DNA of 64,000 nucleotides. It comes from a virus. Lineage: Duplodnaviria; Heunggongvirae; Uroviricota; Caudoviricetes. Below, piece after piece: positions 12,340-58,462 of the stretch (position 1 is its first letter; every line of letters begins with the position of its first letter). The position numbers and the translations under genes were made by a program. The DNA lies in the IMG/VR virus record IMGVR_UViG_2693429768_000001, positions 1-64,000 of that record; one strand, written 5' to 3'. The notes below the pieces were generated by a model. It was given only the letters and a program-made list of their open reading frames with translations, did not search any database and was not told where the DNA came from.

Positions 12340-13370
12340 AAACACCTCTCGTCACCCGTAATGAAATAGCCGAAGCGATCGCCTTGCATACAATCTGTAT
12401 GCCGACACGGGAGATCCCCGGCGCAATTGCCAACTATTTCATGATAACCAGGCGTTTTTATACCCGAACAGATAAGGCTGTGATCAACAGGCTACTGATA
12501 GCCGAGATCAGGGATTATTTGATTGAACAAGGACGTCTACGTTACGCAACAGTGGCAGCAGAAATGAGAAAGGAGGCACATAGAATGACCGGTAATAATT
12601 TAAATGTTGAAAAACCAGCACCTGTTGCTTCAGCTACGCCAGCACCAGCCCTGAATGTCATCCCCAACACCGGAGACACAATCGACAGCCAAACATTGTT
12701 GAAGATGGTCAATGAGGCACGGAAATTATGTAGCGAAAAACCAGTTCGCAACAATGATTTCATTGCCAGAGTTAAGGATGAGCTTGAAGGAGAAACCTAC
12801 GAAATTTTCGTAGGTCAAAAAAACGGCGCAGAAATAGATATTATAACCATGACCTACAAACAAGCCCTGCGAGTTGCCGCGCGCGAGTCAAAAGCGGTCC
12901 GCCGTTCGCTGATCGACAAACTGGAAGAATTACAGCAGGCAAACTCCCCTACCCCATCGATCCCCCAAACATTACCAGAAGCCCTACGCCTGGCTGCCGA
13001 GTTGGCAGAACAGAAAATGCATCTGGAACAACAGCTGGTGGCCGCAGCACCTAAAGTCGATTTTGCCGACCGGGTATCAGTGGCTAATGGAATCCTGATC
13101 GGTAACTTTGCAAAGGTCGTTGGACTTAAGCAAAACGCCCTTTTCTCATGGTTGCGCCAGAACGGCATTCTCATGGCTTTTGGTGCGCGCAAAAACGTAC
13201 CGCGCCAGCAGTACATTAACGCCGGGTATTTCACGGTGAAAGAAGTGGTGCTGGATGATGAAAATGGCTATCAGATACGGCTGACGCCACAATTAACGGG
13301 TAAAGGCCAGCAGTGGTTAACTCGCAAGCTACTTGATGCTGGTTTGTTAAAACCAGTAGCAATAGGTTAA
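12336..13370 (+). CDS. ant: Antirepressor Ant, 344 aa
   Basis: ATG 12336; C-terminal ~130 aa paralogous to KilA C-terminus (ALRLAAELAEQK...GKGQQWL); immI position. Confidence 0.7.
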   Translation: MKTPLVTRNEIAEAIALHTICMPTREIPGAIANYFMITRRFYTRTDKAVINRLLIAEIRDYLIEQGRLRYATVAAEMRKEAHRMTGNNLNVEKPAPVASATPAPALNVIPNTGDTIDSQTLLKMVNEARKLCSEKPVRNNDFIARVKDELEGETYEIFVGQKNGAEIDIITMTYKQALRVAARESKAVRRSLIDKLEELQQANSPTPSIPQTLPEALRLAAELAEQKMHLEQQLVAAAPKVDFADRVSVANGILIGNFAKVVGLKQNALFSWLRQNGILMAFGARKNVPRQQYINAGYFTVKEVVLDDENGYQIRLTPQLTGKGQQWLTRKLLDAGLLKPVAIG

Positions 13371-13448
13371 CAAAAGAAAAAAACCTGCCAGCAAACTGGC
13401 AGGTTTCTGAGCAGATCGTCCAACCCGATCTGGATCGAGTCAGAAAAA

Positions 13449-13465
13449 TTTGCTCTAATAAATTT
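13449..13465 (+). promoter_or_regulatory. C1-operator-like site TTTGCTCTAATAAATTT upstream of kilA-repL
   Basis: Read directly. Confidence 0.65.
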
Positions 13466-13534
13466 CGTTTTCTAAGTGCAAAGAATCACCATTTCGAGCT
13501 GGTGATTGAAGGTTGATGCAAATTTGGAGAAAAA

Positions 13535-14335
13535 ATGCAACAAACATTCAATGCGGATATGAATATATCAAACCTTCATCAAAATGTCGATCCTTCAACC
13601 ACTCTGCCCGTTATTTGTGGTGTTGAAATTACGACCGACCGCGCTGGCCGTTACAACCTTAATGCTCTACACAGAGCGAGCGGACTCGGTGCCCATAAAG
13701 CGCCAGCTCAATGGCTAAGAACGCTGTCAGCCAAACAGCTCATCGAAGAGCTTGAAAAAGAAACTATGCAGAATTGCATAGTTTCGTTCGAAGGCCGTGG
13801 CGGCGGCACTTTTGCCCATGAATTGCTCGCAGTGGAGTACGCAGGCTGGATTTCTCCCGCGTTTCGGCTGAAGGTAAACCAGACATTTATCGACTATCGA
13901 GCCGGAAGATTACAACCTGCTATTCCGAAGAGCCTCCCAGAAGCTCTCCGTTTGGCTGCTGACCTGGCAGAGCAAAAGCAACGGCTGGAGCAAAAAATGC
14001 TGATGGATGCACCTAAAGTCGAATTCGCCGAACGCGTTGCTACCGCCAGCGGGGTTCTAATCGGCAACTATGCCAAAGTGCTCGGCCTGGGCCAAAACTA
14101 TCTCTTCACCTGGTTGCGTGATAACGGAATTCTGATCGCAACCGGTGAACGCAGGAACGTCCCCAAACAAGAATACATATCCCGTGGGTATTTCACCCTT
14201 AAAGAAACCGTGATCGATACAAGCAATGGAAGCAGGATTTCTTTCACGACTCGTATAACCGGCAAAGGTCAGCAGTGGCTGATGAAGCGATTGCTTGATG
14301 CTGGTGTGCTGGTACCTGTCGCGGCAACGCGCTAA
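13535..14335 (+). CDS. kilA: KilA (KilA-N domain plus antirepressor-like C-terminal domain), 266 aa
   Basis: Size identical to recalled P1 KilA; immediately upstream of repL. Confidence 0.7.
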   Translation: MQQTFNADMNISNLHQNVDPSTTLPVICGVEITTDRAGRYNLNALHRASGLGAHKAPAQWLRTLSAKQLIEELEKETMQNCIVSFEGRGGGTFAHELLAVEYAGWISPAFRLKVNQTFIDYRAGRLQPAIPKSLPEALRLAADLAEQKQRLEQKMLMDAPKVEFAERVATASGVLIGNYAKVLGLGQNYLFTWLRDNGILIATGERRNVPKQEYISRGYFTLKETVIDTSNGSRISFTTRITGKGQQWLMKRLLDAGVLVPVAATR

Positions 14336-14364
14336 CAGACGTAGTAAGAACCACCAGCATTGTA

Positions 14365-15210
14365 ATGCTGGCTAAAGTCACTTTCCTGAGCTGTATAACG
14401 ATGAGCGATTTTACTTTTTCTGGCTATGAATTGGCCTTCTTTGTAACACACTCCGGTCTATCCCGTAGCGCCGGGCATATCCTGTCGCAATGTGCAAATC
14501 TCGCGGCAACAACCAGTGAATACTTCATTCACAAGCCCCACCGCCTGATCGCGGCAGAAACTGGTTATAGCCAATCAACCGTCGTTCGTGCATTCCGTGA
14601 AGCTGTAAACAAAGGAATTCTATCTGTAGAGATTGTTATCGGCGATCACCGTGAACGTCGCGCTAACCTGTACCGGTTTACACCATCCTTTTTGGCCTTC
14701 GCACAACAAGCCAAAAATGCGCTGATTGAAAGCAAATTAAAGATCTCTTCAGCGGCAACCAAGGTTAAAGCTGTTCTCGCTAAGACATTGGCTTTATTTA
14801 ATTTTTTATCCACACCCCCATGTCAAAATGATACCCCCTCCCCCTGTCAGGATGACGTGGCAATAAAGAATAAGAAGTCACAAGTTAAAAAAACAAAAAG
14901 ATCAGTTTCCGGCGGTGCCGGAACGACCAGACTCAAAAAATTGACTTCATGGATCGCTGAGGCAAAAGCAAAGGCTGACAATCTGCGGTTATCCAAAAAA
15001 CGCGCTCAAAAACATGAGTTCAAGCAGAAAGTAGAGGCGGCAGCGCGGAAATATGCTTACCTGAAGGACAAGCGTTCTCCTGATATTGGCGGGATATCAA
15101 ACTTCGATAATCTGCCGCATTGCATGACGGTAAACGAAGCTCTTAATGCGGTTTTAGCCAAAAATAAAGATAACGAAAAATGGGGTATACCGGCAGGATT
15201 CAGGGGATGA
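14365..15210 (+). CDS. repL: Lytic replication protein RepL (oriL expected inside), 281 aa
   Basis: Size and position match recalled P1 RepL; ATG 14365. Confidence 0.7.
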   Translation: MLAKVTFLSCITMSDFTFSGYELAFFVTHSGLSRSAGHILSQCANLAATTSEYFIHKPHRLIAAETGYSQSTVVRAFREAVNKGILSVEIVIGDHRERRANLYRFTPSFLAFAQQAKNALIESKLKISSAATKVKAVLAKTLALFNFLSTPPCQNDTPSPCQDDVAIKNKKSQVKKTKRSVSGGAGTTRLKKLTSWIAEAKAKADNLRLSKKRAQKHEFKQKVEAAARKYAYLKDKRSPDIGGISNFDNLPHCMTVNEALNAVLAKNKDNEKWGIPAGFRG

Positions 15211-15260
15211 TAGATTGCTCTAATCTGGAGTCACCTGGCGTTTTCAGTTTGAGGTCGGAG

Positions 15261-15527
15261 ATGCAATCTGATTTTTTACAGTTAGCGATCGCTTTTGCAG
15301 GATATGTTTGTATTGGCTTCTGTGTATACATGATCAGCCGAAAAATGCTTGTCGATATCGACCGCAAAGAACGAGCAGAGGAGATCTTAGTATGGATTTT
15401 CTTTGGCGCGGTCTGGCCATTAGGGATCATGTTTGCTGCAACATTTCTTCGATGTGGATATTCACCCTTCCAGGTGATTTCTATAGAAAAAAAGCCAGAC
15501 ATTGATACAATCGTTGCGGGTGCTTGA
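15261..15527 (+). CDS. Small two-helix membrane protein, 88 aa
   Basis: Start moved to ATG 15261 (RBS GAGGTCGGAG); hydrophobic segments LAIAFAGYVCIGFCVYMI and ILVWIFFGAVWPLGIMFAATFL. Confidence 0.45.
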   Translation: MQSDFLQLAIAFAGYVCIGFCVYMISRKMLVDIDRKERAEEILVWIFFGAVWPLGIMFAATFLRCGYSPFQVISIEKKPDIDTIVAGA

Positions 15528-15628
15528 GGCTATCTGCTTCAGGCATGACCCGAAAAGCAGATAGAAGAAAGCCCCAGATAACATTACGCGTCCTGCAAGA
15601 CGCTTAACATTAATCTGAGGCCATATCT

Positions 15629-15835
15629 ATGCTTAGCATACGTAGATTAGCCTCTTACCGACCAAAAGGTCAAGGAGAAGCAGGCTATGAAGCAGCAAAA
15701 AGCGATGTTAATCGCTCTGATCGTCATCTGTTTAACCGTCATTGTGACGGCACTGGTAACGAGGAAAGACCTCTGCGAGGTACGAATCCGAACCGGCCAG
15801 ACGGAGGTCACTGTCTTCACAGCCTACGAATCTGA
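15629..15835 (+). CDS. mok: mok-like overlapping reading frame of the hok locus, 68 aa
   Basis: ATG 15629; overlaps hok in a different frame as in hok/mok/sok loci. Confidence 0.55.
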   Translation: MLSIRRLASYRPKGQGEAGYEAAKSDVNRSDRHLFNRHCDGTGNEERPLRGTNPNRPDGGHCLHSLRI

Positions 15836-15842
15836 AAGGTAA
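15687..15842 (+). CDS. hok: Hok/Gef-family type I toxin, 51 aa
   Basis: Manual translation MKQQKAMLIALIVICLTVIVTALVTRKDLCEVRIRTGQTEVTVFTAYESER; near-identical in pattern to recalled E. coli Gef/HokC; below the ORF-track size cutoff. Confidence 0.85.
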   Translation: MKQQKAMLIALIVICLTVIVTALVTRKDLCEVRIRTGQTEVTVFTAYESER

Positions 15843-16196
15843 GAGACCTGGCGGGGAGTGATCCCCGTCACTCTTCGTGTGTCTGGTAACCTCAATGCAC
15901 CCTTTTCTCCCCAATAGTGTAAAACACAATGAAGTAGAAGGAGTTATTTCACATCATGCAAAGATTCAGACCATATCTCCCAATAGCCTTCGCGACATGA
16001 TGACTTTCAGAAATATCTAGCTGTTAACAAAATTCCATACTTGCTTTGCTAATACCACCTAGATTATATATGGAAAAATACACCTAAAACTTAAACAAAT
16101 TATATCCACAACAAACATCCATCTATTAGGATTAAAATTAATTTAATAATAAATAATACAACACCGGTTCATTTTCTAACAAACCGGTGGGCACCA

Positions 16197-17189
16197 TTAT
16201 TGGAATAACTTACTGATTACATTAAAAACATTAAGGGCGTTACTTGCCACACTAGACATCTTGGCTGAATTTTTTTCGATTGAGTCAAGAACACTTTCGA
16301 CTTCCGATAAAGTTCTTCTGCTATCTGCATCTTTTCCTGAGTCTATCGCATCTTTAATTGCAGATATAGCAGACTCTAAATTCTCCTTAAACTCACCTGT
16401 CGTCTCATCCTTCAAGAGAAGTTCTAACTCTTGTTTAAGTTTTTCCAATGATGCTCTTTTCTCATCAGTTTTACTAATCTTCCCTGAATAACTGACACAA
16501 ACACATTCTCTTTTATTGCAGACAGGACAACCATTTAGATAATAACTTTCAAACGCCTCGCCAAGATCATCATCTTTAAAAATAATCCCCCATAAAGAAA
16601 ACAACCAAGCATATATATCAGCACACTCTTCATGAAGATTTTCTTTGTTGTAATTTTTATCTTCAATTGATTTAGCATAAGCCTCTTGCAACTCACCCAA
16701 CTCTTCGAATAACCTGGATGAATGATAAAACCCACCAAAAGTAGACCAAATGGTTCTATTCGACGGATAGATGTCATTAATCATTCGTGGCGCATAAGGC
16801 GGAAATTGCATAGGTTTAATAGCGTTATATTTATTGAAAAGCTCATCTTTAATTCCTTTTGCGCTTCTTATTTTCTCTGGCTTTCTGTGTGTTTGAGAAC
16901 AGGAACAAGGCGCCCCTAAGCAATAAGGACAGCAACTAGGAAATTTTTTATAAAATGCTTCCTGTGGTTGTATTTCAAGTTTATCACAGATTGCAAAAAG
17001 CCAAGACAATGCTTCTATATAGGTATTTTTTAATAATTCTTTATCCTGATTACCATCACGAATAAACTCACGTGTTAAATAAGCTGTTTTCCTTGTCAGA
17101 TAAGAGTACATATACTCAAATGATTTTTCTTCATTTTTTTTGCTGTAAATACCTACAATAATATTGCTCATATCATTGATACGTAACAT
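16197..17189 (-). CDS. MazG-like nucleotide pyrophosphohydrolase-like protein with two Cys-cluster zinc-ribbon motifs and a C-terminal coiled coil, 330 aa
   Basis: Start at ATG 17189 (RBS AAGAGGAA); EELGELQEA...EECADIYAWL = EExxE...EExxD signature; CCPYCLGAPCSCS and CPVCNKRECVCVS; AT-rich; hairpin terminator at ~16150-16185. Confidence 0.6.
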   Translation of the reverse strand: MLRINDMSNIIVGIYSKKNEEKSFEYMYSYLTRKTAYLTREFIRDGNQDKELLKNTYIEALSWLFAICDKLEIQPQEAFYKKFPSCCPYCLGAPCSCSQTHRKPEKIRSAKGIKDELFNKYNAIKPMQFPPYAPRMINDIYPSNRTIWSTFGGFYHSSRLFEELGELQEAYAKSIEDKNYNKENLHEECADIYAWLFSLWGIIFKDDDLGEAFESYYLNGCPVCNKRECVCVSYSGKISKTDEKRASLEKLKQELELLLKDETTGEFKENLESAISAIKDAIDSGKDADSRRTLSEVESVLDSIEKNSAKMSSVASNALNVFNVISKLFQ

Positions 17190-17486
17190 GACATTCCTCT
17201 TAAATAAGCCAATACTTCCTAGAACCATATATGCTTCGACAAAGATTAACGGACATCTTGCCTTCACAAACTTTGACGCTACATAAATTTAACCATGTGC
17301 ATACTAAATATTTAAGGTAGAAAAGTATAGGAGTATTTATTAATAGGTAACTGTTAGTTTACACTCACTTCATACCAGAGTATTTACAAGATGTTATTTT
17401 ACTCTATTCGCTAGGCGGTGGAATGCGGTTGTATCAAGGGGAGGTAAACCTCCCCCGAAGAAGATTAAAAGTACAAGGGATAACAC

Positions 17487-17996
17487 TTAATCCCACTCAA
17501 TCCAGTTGTAGACGATACGAAGTGACGGGCGCACAGCGGCAGTCACATCTTCGGTACTAAAGTCGATTGCATCACTGTAGATTTTGCAGTCCAACATTTC
17601 AATTGTTGTAGCAGCTTTTGTCACAGCGTTAACCCCGGAAGATTTGGATTCAGGGGTAGCAGCCATCGTGATATCAACATAGTCCTTCGCCGCAATGCGA
17701 TCTTTAATGAACTGAAGAATATCGCCTTCGATAGTCTCCACGCACTGGACCTGGATTTCCCCAGAGTTTCGAATTGGACCGTGCTGGTTGAACTTCACAC
17801 CATTCGGACCATAGTCCTCCACATCCTCGCGGGTCATTTCAGGAATTTGCGACGTGCGAACCAGTACGCTGATATCTTCATGGCCTGCAAAAGTGAGCTG
17901 GAATTCAGAAGATACCAGTCGTTCGCCTTTGGCCGCGTTGGCAGTATAGCGGCCCTTAATAAATTTACGGTTTCCCTTAGTGTTATTGTGCCCCAT
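17487..17996 (-). CDS. Tail/baseplate structural protein, 169 aa
   Basis: ORF track; first gene of head/tail block. Confidence 0.45.
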   Translation of the reverse strand: MGHNNTKGNRKFIKGRYTANAAKGERLVSSEFQLTFAGHEDISVLVRTSQIPEMTREDVEDYGPNGVKFNQHGPIRNSGEIQVQCVETIEGDILQFIKDRIAAKDYVDITMAATPESKSSGVNAVTKAATTIEMLDCKIYSDAIDFSTEDVTAAVRPSLRIVYNWIEWD

Positions 17997-18007
17997 ATAA
18001 AATCCTT

Positions 18008-18589
18008 TTACTGGAACGCCCGAACAATATCGGAGCTGTTATATATCGAAGAACCGGTCAACTGGAGGTTGACGGTGTTTTTCAGGAAATGCCCATTGCT
18101 GTCCCTGGGTGCATCGAGATCGAAACTTATGTCCTGGATAGCGACATCAATGATGTTGATCCGGCGACCAATGTTTAGCGTCACACGCTCCGGGATTCGA
18201 CCGCCAATACTGGCATCTTTAAGTTCCGGGCTAATCATCGCTGACAATGCGGCGATAGCTCCTGAAACCTCCGTGAATGGGTCAAACAAAGCGATGAAAG
18301 TTACTGGCAGCGTGAAAGTCGGCGGTGTTCCCCCCTCCCAAACCATTAAGCTGTTCCAACGGGCCACCGACGTTGTTTCAGTACCAACCTGCGCAAAACC
18401 ACTGAAAGCACCAGCAACAGACCCCATGGACATACCGGTAAACGGCGCTTCCCAATTCTGGGCCATGTTCATTGCTGCCCCCTGGCTGATATATCCGGTA
18501 ACCTGGTACTGAGAGTTCGTTAAAGTAACTTTCAGAAATGGCGATACACCATCAGCCTGGCTGTAAACCCCATAAGGTATAGGTGCCAT
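18008..18589 (-). CDS. Tail structural protein (possible tube), 193 aa
   Basis: ORF track; downstream of sheath-like gene. Confidence 0.45.
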   Translation of the reverse strand: MAPIPYGVYSQADGVSPFLKVTLTNSQYQVTGYISQGAAMNMAQNWEAPFTGMSMGSVAGAFSGFAQVGTETTSVARWNSLMVWEGGTPPTFTLPVTFIALFDPFTEVSGAIAALSAMISPELKDASIGGRIPERVTLNIGRRINIIDVAIQDISFDLDAPRDSNGHFLKNTVNLQLTGSSIYNSSDIVRAFQ

Positions 18590-18624
18590 TCAAGTTAAAG
18601 GCCGGAGTTCTCCGGCCTCCTCCT

Positions 18625-19440
18625 TTAGCCAAGGCGCTTACGGCGCAGTTTCATTGACTTTTTGCGGGCAAGTTTTGCCGCGCCGGTCTGGGCTTTTCGA
18701 CGCGCTTTTTTCAGCGCCGATTTTTGAGCCGCAGTCAGACGTTTTTTCCGCAGGCGTTTACGGATGAGTTTGATCTCACCGTTACGAACAACCTTCTTAA
18801 ATGCTTCAGTCAGCATTTCATCAGAAGTGCCAGCAACAACAAACGCCGCTTCCAGTTCGTCGCGGTCGTCGCTATCTAAACCAGCGATAGAGGCACCAAC
18901 ATCAGCAGCAGCGTCGTCGTCTTCATCGTCAGCCAGTGCTTCGATCATGTCATCATCTACACCGCATGCTGCGAGGAAGTCAGCAACATTTGCCCATGCT
19001 TCGTTATAGGCATCGTCCTGTTCTTCTGTAACTTCGGAGTCGTCGTCATCAGAGATACCAGCGATAGCCTGAACGAAACCATCAAGGGAGTCGAAAGTCA
19101 GATCACCGCTATCAGCCCAGGCGAAAACGGCGTCGGCCGCATCACTCAACGCATTCTGCATCGCACTTCGATTTGCAGCTTCCAGAATCATCTGGTGCGC
19201 CTGTTCAACGGTCCATTCTTTACCGTCTTTCTCTTCCAGGATTTGCTCAGGAGCCGGATCAGATGGAACGTTATCGTTAGTCTGTGCCGCCGGTTCCGGA
19301 TTATTATTAATAACCGGATCTGTTGGCGGTTCGGCGCTTGCTCGGGCAGACTCCATCAGCTGCACAGGATCAGAGTTCAAAGCGAAACGGGACAGTCCAT
19401 TCCCCAAAAATGCCCCGGATTGAAAAAAGTTTTTGCTCAT
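18625..19440 (-). CDS. Acidic protein with basic C-terminal tail, 271 aa (assembly/scaffold-like)
   Basis: Asp/Glu-rich middle, Lys/Arg-rich C-terminus; between capsid and tail genes. Confidence 0.4.
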   Translation of the reverse strand: MSKNFFQSGAFLGNGLSRFALNSDPVQLMESARASAEPPTDPVINNNPEPAAQTNDNVPSDPAPEQILEEKDGKEWTVEQAHQMILEAANRSAMQNALSDAADAVFAWADSGDLTFDSLDGFVQAIAGISDDDDSEVTEEQDDAYNEAWANVADFLAACGVDDDMIEALADDEDDDAAADVGASIAGLDSDDRDELEAAFVVAGTSDEMLTEAFKKVVRNGEIKLIRKRLRKKRLTAAQKSALKKARRKAQTGAAKLARKKSMKLRRKRLG

Positions 19441-57860: not shown

Positions 57861-58082
57861 ATGCAATCCATTAACTTCCGTACCGCGCGTGGCAACCTTT
57901 CTGAAGTGCTCAACAATGTTGAAGCCGGGGAAGAGGTTGAAATCACCCGCAGAGGCCGTGAGCCAGCAGTAATTGTCAGCAAGGCTACTTTCGAAGCCTA
58001 CAAAAAAGCGGCGCTGGATGCTGAATTTGCATCCCTGTTTGACACCCTGGACTCCACCAACAAGGAACTGGTTAACCGATAA
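57861..58082 (+). CDS. phd: Antitoxin Phd, 73 aa
   Basis: [39 protein letters not shown]... recognised as P1 Phd; stop overlaps doc ATG. Confidence 0.9.
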
Positions 58083-58462
58083 TGAGGCATATATCACCGG
58101 AAGAACTTATTGCGCTTCATGATGCGAATATAAGCCGCTACGGCGGCCTGCCGGGAATGTCTGATCCGGGTAGGGCAGAGGCCATTATCGGGAGAGTTCA
58201 GGCCAGAGTTGCCTACGAAGAGATCACCGACCTTTTCGAAGTCTCCGCCACCTACCTGGTGGCTACAGCGAGAGGGCATATATTCAATGATGCCAATAAG
58301 CGTACCGCGCTAAACAGTGCGCTGCTATTTCTACGCCGTAACGGGGTGCAGGTATTTGATTCACCTGAACTGGCAGACCTTACCGTAGGCGCTGCGACTG
58401 GCGAGATATCTGTATCTTCTGTCGCCGACACGTTACGTAGATTGTATGGTTCTGCGGAGTAG
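58082..58462 (+). CDS. doc: Toxin Doc (Fic-fold), 126 aa
   Basis: Directly coupled downstream of phd; size equals recalled P1 Doc. Confidence 0.9.

Follow-up and report, generated by a model that had tools for sequence, protein, structure and literature searches.

The hok gene and the overlapping mok frame

The window, by which we mean the whole stretch of 64,000 nucleotides that was analysed, carries on its plus strand a single copy of the hok toxin gene, overlapped by a second reading frame, mok, and faced on the minus strand by a predicted gene for the antisense RNA Sok. The hok/sok pair is a textbook type I toxin-antitoxin system. The coding frames and their ribosome-binding sites are as follows.

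15687-15842, plus strand: hok toxin gene, 51 amino acids, HokD/prophage type, with Cys30 and Tyr47; matches PF01848
15672-15677, plus strand: hok Shine-Dalgarno sequence AAGGAG, 9 nt 5' of the hok ATG
15629-15835, plus strand: mok reading frame, 68 codons, in the +1 frame relative to hok, stopping 7 nt before the hok stop
15617-15620, plus strand: mok Shine-Dalgarno sequence GAGG, 8 nt 5' of the mok ATG

The translation of 15687-15842, MKQQKAMLIALIVICLTVIVTALVTRKDLCEVRIRTGQTEVTVFTAYESER, is identical to the 51-aa peptide that the original prediction had assigned to the Hok/Gef family. A search for similarity to Hok-family proteins, which it had suggested as a check, produced a clear match: the peptide aligns with the full length of the Pfam profile HOK_GEF (PF01848; positions 1-42 of 42) at 78.7 bits and E 2.4e-22, the gathering cut-off being 22 bits. 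A match of this strength means that the Hok similarity is not a chance one, and family membership is established. Relatives with 96-98% identity at the protein level are present in Escherichia, Shigella and Kluyvera. The peptide does not reach the curated NCBIfam cut-offs for the Hok family (NF007279, 49.5 vs 73) or for HokA (NF007290, 38.1 vs 89); these two are models of other subfamilies, and RefSeq still names the identical protein HokD.

For comparison, one genome per species was scanned for homologues, yielding 47 related loci from at least 8 genera, including Escherichia, Shigella, Kluyvera, Citrobacter, Photorhabdus, Erwinia and Pantoea. The BLAST homology between the window and these loci repeatedly starts at 15515-15518 and ends at 15902-15906, and these limits coincide with the inferred ends of the transcription unit. 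A set of 38 sequences was aligned with MAFFT for the analysis of covariation; the CAAGGAG of the hok ribosome-binding site is conserved throughout this alignment.

The overlapping frame had been likened to mok, and it indeed has the expected features: 15629-15835 on the plus strand yields 68 amino acids and has its own GAGG, invariant in all 38 loci, while the start ATG is kept in 37 of them. The mok frame of plasmid R1 also lies in the +1 frame. Among the loci, the frame relative to hok varies, being +1, in frame, or just 19 codons long, and the Mok translation has no family match in Pfam or NCBIfam; on these two grounds we rejected the idea of Mok as a conserved protein. Conservation of the start codon and Shine-Dalgarno sequence, combined with a variable frame, fits a role for the translation of mok and not for its product. 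In R1, mutations of the equivalent GAGG abolish toxicity (PMC9841398).

The predicted hok mRNA and its regulatory boxes

The definitions of the regulatory elements (tac, ucb, dcb, fbi and others) were taken from PMC9841398. The predicted elements of the mRNA are listed below in 5' to 3' order.

15484-15511, plus strand: candidate hok promoter; -35 TAGAAA at 15484-15489, 16-nt spacer, extended -10 TGaTACAAT at 15503-15511
15518-15906, plus strand: putative full-length hok mRNA, about 389 nt, 3' end approximate; placed by homology boundaries and fold
15518-15529, plus strand: tac (translational activator element), sequence GGGTGCTTGAGG; located at the 5' end of the mRNA, where the RF01794 match starts; pairs with fbi
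15571-15575, plus strand: ucb (anti-Shine-Dalgarno box) GCCCC, predicted partner of the mok Shine-Dalgarno sequence in the closed form and of tac in the open form
15576-15616, plus strand: hairpin between ucb and the mok Shine-Dalgarno sequence, its complement being the Sok terminator hairpin; covarying stem
15650-15658, plus strand: dcb region GCCTCTTAC, whose GCCTC would pair with the mok Shine-Dalgarno region in the open form (Rfam helix GaGGC/GCCuC)
15849-15870, plus strand: 3' stem-loop, 9 bp, loop GUGA; predicted to terminate the hok mRNA in its processed (truncated) form
15890-15902, plus strand: fbi (fold-back inhibitory element) with the sequence CCTCAATGCACCC; complements the 5' end of the mRNA, forming 12 bp with tac and one bulged U

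The candidate promoter has 9 of 12 consensus matches plus the TG, its -35 box being weak, and ends 7 nt 5' of the conserved mRNA 5' end at 15518, near which hok transcription would start. As the consensus scan reported three promoter-like sites with 2.0 expected by chance, the promoter call rests mainly on its position.

The Rfam model RF01794 (hok/sok) matches 15518-15692 of the plus strand over its whole length (model positions 1-157 of 157) at 113.9 bits and E 1.5e-26, the gathering score being 59. Despite its 'sok' designation, the match lies on the hok-sense strand, its first bases being GGGUGCUUGAGG and its last bases covering the hok AUG; given this strand and extent, the model depicts the leader of the hok mRNA, including the segment complementary to Sok, and not the antisense RNA itself. 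Its structure consists of the tac/ucb stem, the Sok-target hairpin, the stem of the mok Shine-Dalgarno sequence with dcb, and the hok Shine-Dalgarno hairpin, and corresponds to the 'open' conformation of R1 (PMC9841398). Two further Rfam matches were rejected as sub-threshold, one of RF01794 to the minus strand at 15428-15575 (20.4 bits, E 0.099) and one of the snoRNA ceN48 (25.7 bits, gathering score 70); both echo the tac stem, which is nearly palindromic.

The minimum free energy fold of 15518-15906 has -153.3 kcal/mol (z = -6.6, with no shuffled sequence equally stable). It is closed by a helix between the 5' and 3' ends, formed by tac and fbi, and pairs the hok start region with the coding sequence near 15812-15820. 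The same fold contains the pairing of ucb with the mok Shine-Dalgarno sequence (G15571:C15621, C15572:G15620, C15573:G15619, C15575:G15617), also present in the RNAalifold consensus (columns 59-63 with 105-110), and that of the dcb segment CTCTTAC (15652-15658) with GTAAGAG (15839-15845) across the hok stop. Since ucb and the mok Shine-Dalgarno box are both invariant, there is no covariation either way for the first of these helices; similarly, the dcb/hok-stop helix (columns 144-150 with 340-346) is nearly invariant, and hence covariation speaks neither for nor against it.

The duplex of tac (15518-15529) with fbi (15890-15902) has -21.6 kcal/mol, as compared to -10.2 +/- 2.4 kcal/mol for shuffled 3' boxes. 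The fold-back pairing expected in a hok mRNA was thus found, closing the full-length fold and, as described below, recurring in the related loci, but at a place other than the predicted one. The GC hairpin previously noticed downstream of hok does exist, as nine pairs at 15849-15870 that include the quoted core; it is not, however, the fold-back element, which lies at 15890-15902. In R1, mutants demonstrate that the equivalent stem-loop protects against 3' exonucleases (PMC9841398).

Besides fbi, tac pairs with the sequence just downstream (to about 15551), forming a metastable hairpin. The open form, with the tac/ucb stem and that of dcb with the mok Shine-Dalgarno sequence, is compatible with the RF01794 consensus, whereas folding of the truncated RNA (15518-15870) gave the local metastable hairpin at the 5' end and no tac/ucb stem. 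The open conformation is therefore drawn from the Rfam consensus only.

Conservation and covariation of the mRNA folds

The tac/fbi pairing was assessed by folding the duplex of the 5' and 3' boxes separately for each sequence, with shuffled 3' boxes as controls. The duplex forms in 35 of 38 loci, at -18 to -27 kcal/mol compared to about -10 +/- 2.5 kcal/mol for the shuffled boxes, and in the other three the ends are visibly degenerate or replaced. In Photorhabdus GGGCGCUUGAGA pairs with UCUCAAGCGCCC, and in Escherichia GGGUGCUUGAGG pairs with CCUCAA(U/C)GCACCC, which amounts to two compensatory double changes (the Photorhabdus boxes being GGGCGC..GAGA with TCTC..GCGCCC). RNAalifold, applied to the MAFFT alignment, kept only 2 of 12 tac/fbi pairs. 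As MAFFT had placed the Photorhabdus fbi one base out of register, there being a bulge in Escherichia and none in Photorhabdus, the column-based counts for tac/fbi pairs are unreliable, and the per-sequence duplexes were used instead.

Over the molecule as a whole, RNAalifold yields 73 pairs in the consensus. The 18 that show compensatory changes include pairs of the metastable hairpin, the Sok-target hairpin between ucb and the mok Shine-Dalgarno sequence, the helix over the hok start, and the 3' stem-loop. In the metastable hairpin, 12 loci each have double changes at pairs 7:31 and 15:23 (UA>CG and GC>AU), which involve the tac positions that also covary with fbi. The stem of the hairpin at 15576-15616 (columns 63-69 with 98-105) has 10-12 double changes per pair; this hairpin also has an extra 18-nt arm, an insert relative to the Rfam model that is typical of the hokD/prophage-type loci. 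One pair of the helix over the hok start (184:316) has 14 double changes, and compensatory changes are also seen in the 3' stem-loop (columns 352-359 with 373-385). The presence and conservation of each RNA element, as well as the covariation, are established.

The predicted sok gene

The antisense gene was placed on the minus strand as follows.

15644-15673, minus strand: predicted sok promoter; -35 TTGACC at 15673-15668, 18-nt spacer, -10 TAATCT at 15649-15644
15565-15637, minus strand: predicted gene of the antisense RNA Sok, with approximate ends and a length of about 73 nt; within the RF01794 match

The predicted RNA has an unpaired 5' stretch that is complementary to the region of the mok start codon; a long hairpin follows, and then a CUUUCUUCU tail. 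It folds at -33.2 kcal/mol (z = -6.2). The Sok RNA of plasmid R1 is 64 nt long and has a shorter hairpin. A sok-like RNA had been anticipated on the opposite strand near 15600-15690. The strand agrees, whereas the position is further to the left, so that the candidate gene and its promoter overlap the anticipated interval only in part.

A search for a sok promoter on the minus strand, also suggested at that stage, gave a mixed outcome: the consensus scan of the locus did not report one, because the -10 box matches only three of six positions, yet a candidate at 15644-15673 occupies a conserved position. It overlaps the hok Shine-Dalgarno sequence and dcb on the opposite strand. In 37 of 38 loci this position holds a -35/-10 pair with TTGACC or TTGCCT and a distance of 17-18 nt; the -10 box is mostly TAnnnT and is CACTCT in seven gef-type loci. 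The architecture of tail, hairpin with a covarying stem, and U-run is retained throughout the aligned loci. Being placed via position and conservation, the sok promoter remains a candidate. Its -10 box sits in dcb, which is also where a Sok-promoter mutation of R1 falls (PMC9841398).

A predicted editing site in the hok coding sequence

One more element lies within the toxin gene.

15825-15828, plus strand: TACG, the Tyr47 codon plus G; predicted TadA A-to-I site at A15826, changing Tyr to Cys

The TACG, which is the TadA motif, sits in the loop of a hairpin formed by CAG (15820-15822) and CUG (15832-15834). The sequence TACGAA is invariant in the 38 loci, and the flanking stem covaries, CG changing to UA at columns 321:335 in 18 loci and GC to AU at columns 322:334 in 10. 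Editing of Tyr to Cys at the corresponding position has been reported for hokC, hokD and hokE (PMC5630033), and A15826 of this copy may be edited in the same way. The toxicity of HokB requires a disulfide involving the second cysteine (bioRxiv 10.1101/2025.08.07.668861 among the sources). With tyrosine instead of cysteine at position 47, full Hok toxicity may depend on RNA editing, which probably tunes it.

The P1-like carrier and the genomic slot

The phage-plasmid nature of the carrier, also proposed initially, is borne out. The window is a P1-type phage-plasmid: the c4 RNA and its targets were found, the c4 RNA, kilA and repL are 97-99% identical to those of phage P1, and the regions 13000-15224 and 17454-19000 are 95-98% identical to NC_005856 (P1) and syntenic with its immunity/lytic-replicon region, which makes it P1-like (Punavirus). 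The type II pair thought to accompany hok is likewise in the window, at 57861-58459.

57861-58079: phd, PF02604
58082-58459: doc, PF02661

Relative to reference P1, the segment 15225-17453 replaces rlfA-rlfB-pmgF, and the breakpoint of this replacement cuts the C1 operator after repL. The hok locus thus occupies a variable slot between repL and bplB, which holds rlfA (DUF3800) and rlfB in P1 and a 198-aa gene in another P1-like element. Directly after the hok locus follows a 1.5-kb insert (15915-17453), absent from the P1-like phage MH422554 and present in 17 PLSDB plasmids; it encodes a 356-aa protein with the RefSeq name MazG-like. In a PADLOC search Hok and orf115 had no match, and orf356 had just one to LmuB, below threshold (E 0.018); NCBIfam gave nothing meaningful for orf115 and orf356.

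Distribution and related loci

The 481-bp hok region matches 560 PLSDB plasmids, mostly non-mobilizable, about 95-100 kb and of the IncY type, as well as 81 phage records. Hundreds of plasmids carry the locus at 98-100% identity, usually annotated as 'type I toxin-antitoxin system toxin HokD'; in the phage record MH422554 the toxin CDS is mislabelled MokW. The hok CDS is found in 448 plasmid records and the sok segment in 523. In some sister plasmids an IS186-family element is inserted between the 3' hairpin and fbi, the 3' stem-loop being a target of such insertions in other records; in others, about 75 in number, the hok CDS is replaced and the Sok gene alone is kept, with a rebuilt -35. The unit in the window, unlike these variants, is free of IS elements and frameshifts. 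Some P1-like plasmids bear mcr-1 or ESBL genes.

The closest copies are those of other P1-like (IncY) elements (AP026755.1, NZ_CP074369.1, MH422554, pMCR-1-P3), with 98-100% identity and also downstream of repL; the copies of the pMCR-1-P3 type are split by an IS186-family element, whereas that of the window is unsplit. Next come the hokD (relF)-type or prophage loci of Escherichia and Shigella (for example, phage Rac MN652886), which are 87-90% identical over 15506-15902 and include 'MokW'/HokD annotations in lambdoid and Stx phages. They share with the window a 96% identical Hok, the 18-nt arm of the Sok hairpin and the tac/fbi boxes, and differ from it in the Hok C-terminus (AVFTAYEPEE, as opposed to TVFTAYESER in the window), in the mok frame, which in several of them is in frame with hok and not +1, and in the carrier, an integrated lambdoid prophage instead of a P1-like plasmid prophage. 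The chromosomal hokC (gef)/sokC loci of E. coli (L013-L019) have 73-75% nucleotide identity over the whole unit and the same regulatory boxes, with Hok 80-82% identical; the gef Sok hairpin is shorter and the gef mok is in frame, and in one copy (L013) an IS186-family element is inserted in the 3' hairpin.

The experimentally characterised prototype, hok/sok (parB) of R1, has an identical set and order of elements: tac, metastable hairpin, ucb, Sok target, mok Shine-Dalgarno sequence, mok, dcb, hok, 3' stem-loop, fbi (PMC9841398). It differs in the Hok sequence, which belongs to another subfamily; in the window, the position of the second cysteine is occupied by tyrosine and would need TadA editing.

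Hok homologs in general have been counted in 10,353 plasmids, 3,852 prophages and 2,501 phages, with enrichment in prophages (bioRxiv 10.1101/2025.08.07.668861), and a P1-like plasmid with toxin-antitoxin modules of types I and II is mentioned in a 2026 preprint (PMC13596339). The presence of hok/sok on P1-like plasmids is already known, both in kind and as an instance.

Proposed mechanism

The expected mechanism follows the scheme of plasmid R1, and we infer each step by homology, from the start and end points of transcription through processing and Sok expression to toxicity and stabilisation of the plasmid. The weak promoter would produce a stable hok mRNA of about 389 nt, locked shut by the pairing of tac at the 5' end with fbi at the 3' end. 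In this closed form ucb would mask the ribosome-binding site of mok, and coding sequence further downstream would hold the hok start region in a helix. Slow trimming of the 3' end back to the stem-loop at 15849-15870 would remove fbi, upon which tac would pair with ucb, releasing the mok Shine-Dalgarno sequence (into its stem with dcb), and hok would be translated coupled to mok. As long as the cell keeps the plasmid, Sok, an unstable RNA expressed constitutively from the opposite strand, would anneal to the processed mRNA where mok translation initiates, and RNase III would cleave the resulting duplex. After loss of the plasmid Sok would disappear first, and translation of Hok, a 51-aa inner-membrane peptide, would lead to cell death, that is, post-segregational killing.

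Our main reading is that 15484-15906 holds a type I toxin-antitoxin module, hok/mok/sok of the HokD/prophage subtype, which is complete and apparently functional and is carried as cargo by a P1-like phage-plasmid; we give this reading a probability of about 0.88. An origin of the ORF and hairpins as chance features of non-coding spacer DNA, for which only the small size of the ORF might speak, is rejected as practically nil in the face of the Pfam (E 2.4e-22) and Rfam (E 1.5e-26) matches, the conservation of tac/fbi, and conservation with covariation across genera. Another possibility is that the locus is a silent, hitch-hiking relic, with little or no transcription or with a Hok non-toxic unless edited, as proposed for the chromosomal hok of K-12. 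Many sister plasmids tolerate its disruption, in the form of an IS186-family insertion or a replaced hok CDS; more records contain the sok segment than the hok CDS (523 and 448, respectively), and Tyr47 needs editing to provide the second cysteine. Still, every regulatory element of the copy in the window is intact and in register, the hok ORF and the mok start are unbroken, the sequence is conserved at 98-100% over hundreds of plasmids, and the Sok counterpart has been retained together with its promoter and terminator, as expected if Hok is still dangerous; since all elements are intact, we regard a silent relic as improbable.

A different question is what an intact locus is selected for. 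It might serve mainly as cargo for abortive infection or superinfection exclusion directed against phages, and not for plasmid addiction: once an infecting phage had stopped transcription in the host, decay of Sok would leave Hok free to kill the cell. The locus lies in the repL-bplB replacement hotspot, which holds varied accessory cassettes and, in the window, a MazG-like gene; phd-doc already supplies addiction; and hok, which is reported to be enriched in prophages, is also said there to act in phage defence (bioRxiv 10.1101/2025.08.07.668861). On the other hand, neither Hok nor its neighbours match PADLOC models, and the same study finds no enrichment of hok near defence systems. Moreover, defence and addiction share one molecular mechanism and differ only in the selective benefit, and it is possible that both roles coexist, as they are compatible and not exclusive. 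We consider defence as the main role to be unlikely and retain the addiction module as the preferred description.

A more speculative and rather doubtful extension, which rests on the record counts and two junction sequences, is that the hok/sok slot of the P1-like family is a site of inter-plasmid conflict. Intact copies would enforce retention, while in the approximately 75 Sok-only plasmids the gene would be an 'orphan antitoxin'. If so, the orphan Sok would act as an anti-addiction module, letting plasmids displace hok-positive incompatible relatives without death of the host, and the slot would have its third state in the copies with an IS186-family element inserted between the 3' hairpin and fbi.

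Significance

The value of the addiction-module assignment lies mainly in annotation: public records label only the toxin CDS, and the map of RNA elements is transferable to them. Of 5426 complete E. coli genomes, 4722 contain related loci of the hokD type, mostly with 80-90% identity and at a median of two places per genome, and hence resident Sok RNAs might cross-neutralise the plasmid-borne toxin and weaken killing. As had been supposed at the outset, hok/sok would give the phage-plasmid a second addiction system beside phd-doc, and two independent systems of this kind would help to explain the stable carriage of P1-like plasmids.

The repL–bplB interval

Judging from the sequence comparison of window positions 15225–17453 with NC_005856 51586–53420 (L048 2226–4060), the interval between repL and bplB is a replacement hotspot of P1-like elements. 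In phage P1 it holds rlfA (DUF3800), rlfB and pmgF, whereas in the window these are replaced by an ORF of 115 aa (orf115), hok/sok and a MazG-like gene, and further P1-like plasmids carry a gene for a 198-aa protein. The left breakpoint, at 15224, truncates the C1 operator Orlf/Op55 of the P1 annotation. The features surrounding the hok unit are as follows.

Features of the window flanking the hok unit
15180–15527, plus strand: ORF of 115 aa, overlapping the repL end and crossing the hok promoter; its stop codon (15525–15527) lies inside tac
15462–15477: weak terminator-like hairpin inside the 115-aa ORF
15915–17453: 1.5-kb insert directly after the hok unit
16197–17267, minus strand: ORF of 356 aa inside the insert, named 'MazG-like family protein' in RefSeq
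16189–16162, minus strand: strong terminator-like hairpin after the 356-aa ORF

The 115-aa ORF yields no family match. At the equivalent site of sister plasmids, RefSeq annotates a shorter protein of 81 aa (WP_001426344.1). Since the alignment lengths in this region differ by one base (767 vs 766), the comparison suggests a 1-nt indel. On the other side of hok, the 356-aa protein has only a marginal match to Pfam MazG (E 0.045) and none in PADLOC. The 1.5-kb insert is found in only 17 PLSDB plasmids, at 99% identity or higher in every one.

Plasmids lacking hok

Certain P1-like plasmids retain the hok leader alone or the Sok gene alone (loci L052 1501–1673 and L053 1501–1590), hok being replaced by the minus-strand gene of the 198-aa protein (WP_000268409.1). 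The homology to the window ends at 15652, within the dcb element. The 90 bp kept in L053 (window 15563–15652) comprise the entire Sok gene and its −10 box, preceded by a new −35-like TTGCTC at a spacing of 18 nt. Among PLSDB records, the sok segment occurs in 523 and the hok CDS in 448, and hence about 75 plasmids are 'sok-only'; their Sok gene may be an orphan antitoxin.

Reading frames, editing motifs and the Rfam model

The hok gene contains two TACG(AA) motifs.

The two motifs with regard to A-to-I editing by TadA
15825–15828: Tyr47, the predicted recoding site
15781–15784: GTA-CGA, Val32-Arg33; editing would be silent (GTA to GTG)

Across the 38 aligned hok loci, mok has a conserved start codon and SD sequence, but its frame is lineage-dependent: it is +1 relative to hok, in frame with it (so that Hok gains an N-terminal extension), or limited to 19 codons. 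The Rfam model RF01794 ('sok antitoxin') matches the hok-sense strand at 15518–15692 (+), from tac through the hok AUG. If used for automated annotation, the model would assign 'sok' to the opposite of its actual strand, at about twice its true length.

IS elements in the 3' hairpin

In pMCR-1-P3 (L051 1886–3224), an IS4-like IS421 element of the IS186 family sits within the GGGG...CCCC 3' hairpin of hok. It cuts the fbi box off from the body of the hok mRNA, the box persisting about 1.35 kb downstream. The chromosomal hokC-type locus of E. coli (L013, row Ecoli_L013) has the identical IS end, CATAAGCGCTAACTTAAGGGTT, at the identical position.

Insertion point in the two compared loci (L051 and L013)
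about 15865 in window coordinates: loop of the 3' hairpin

IS elements seem to target the 3' hairpin of hok recurrently, and such an insertion would uncouple the fold-back control of hok.
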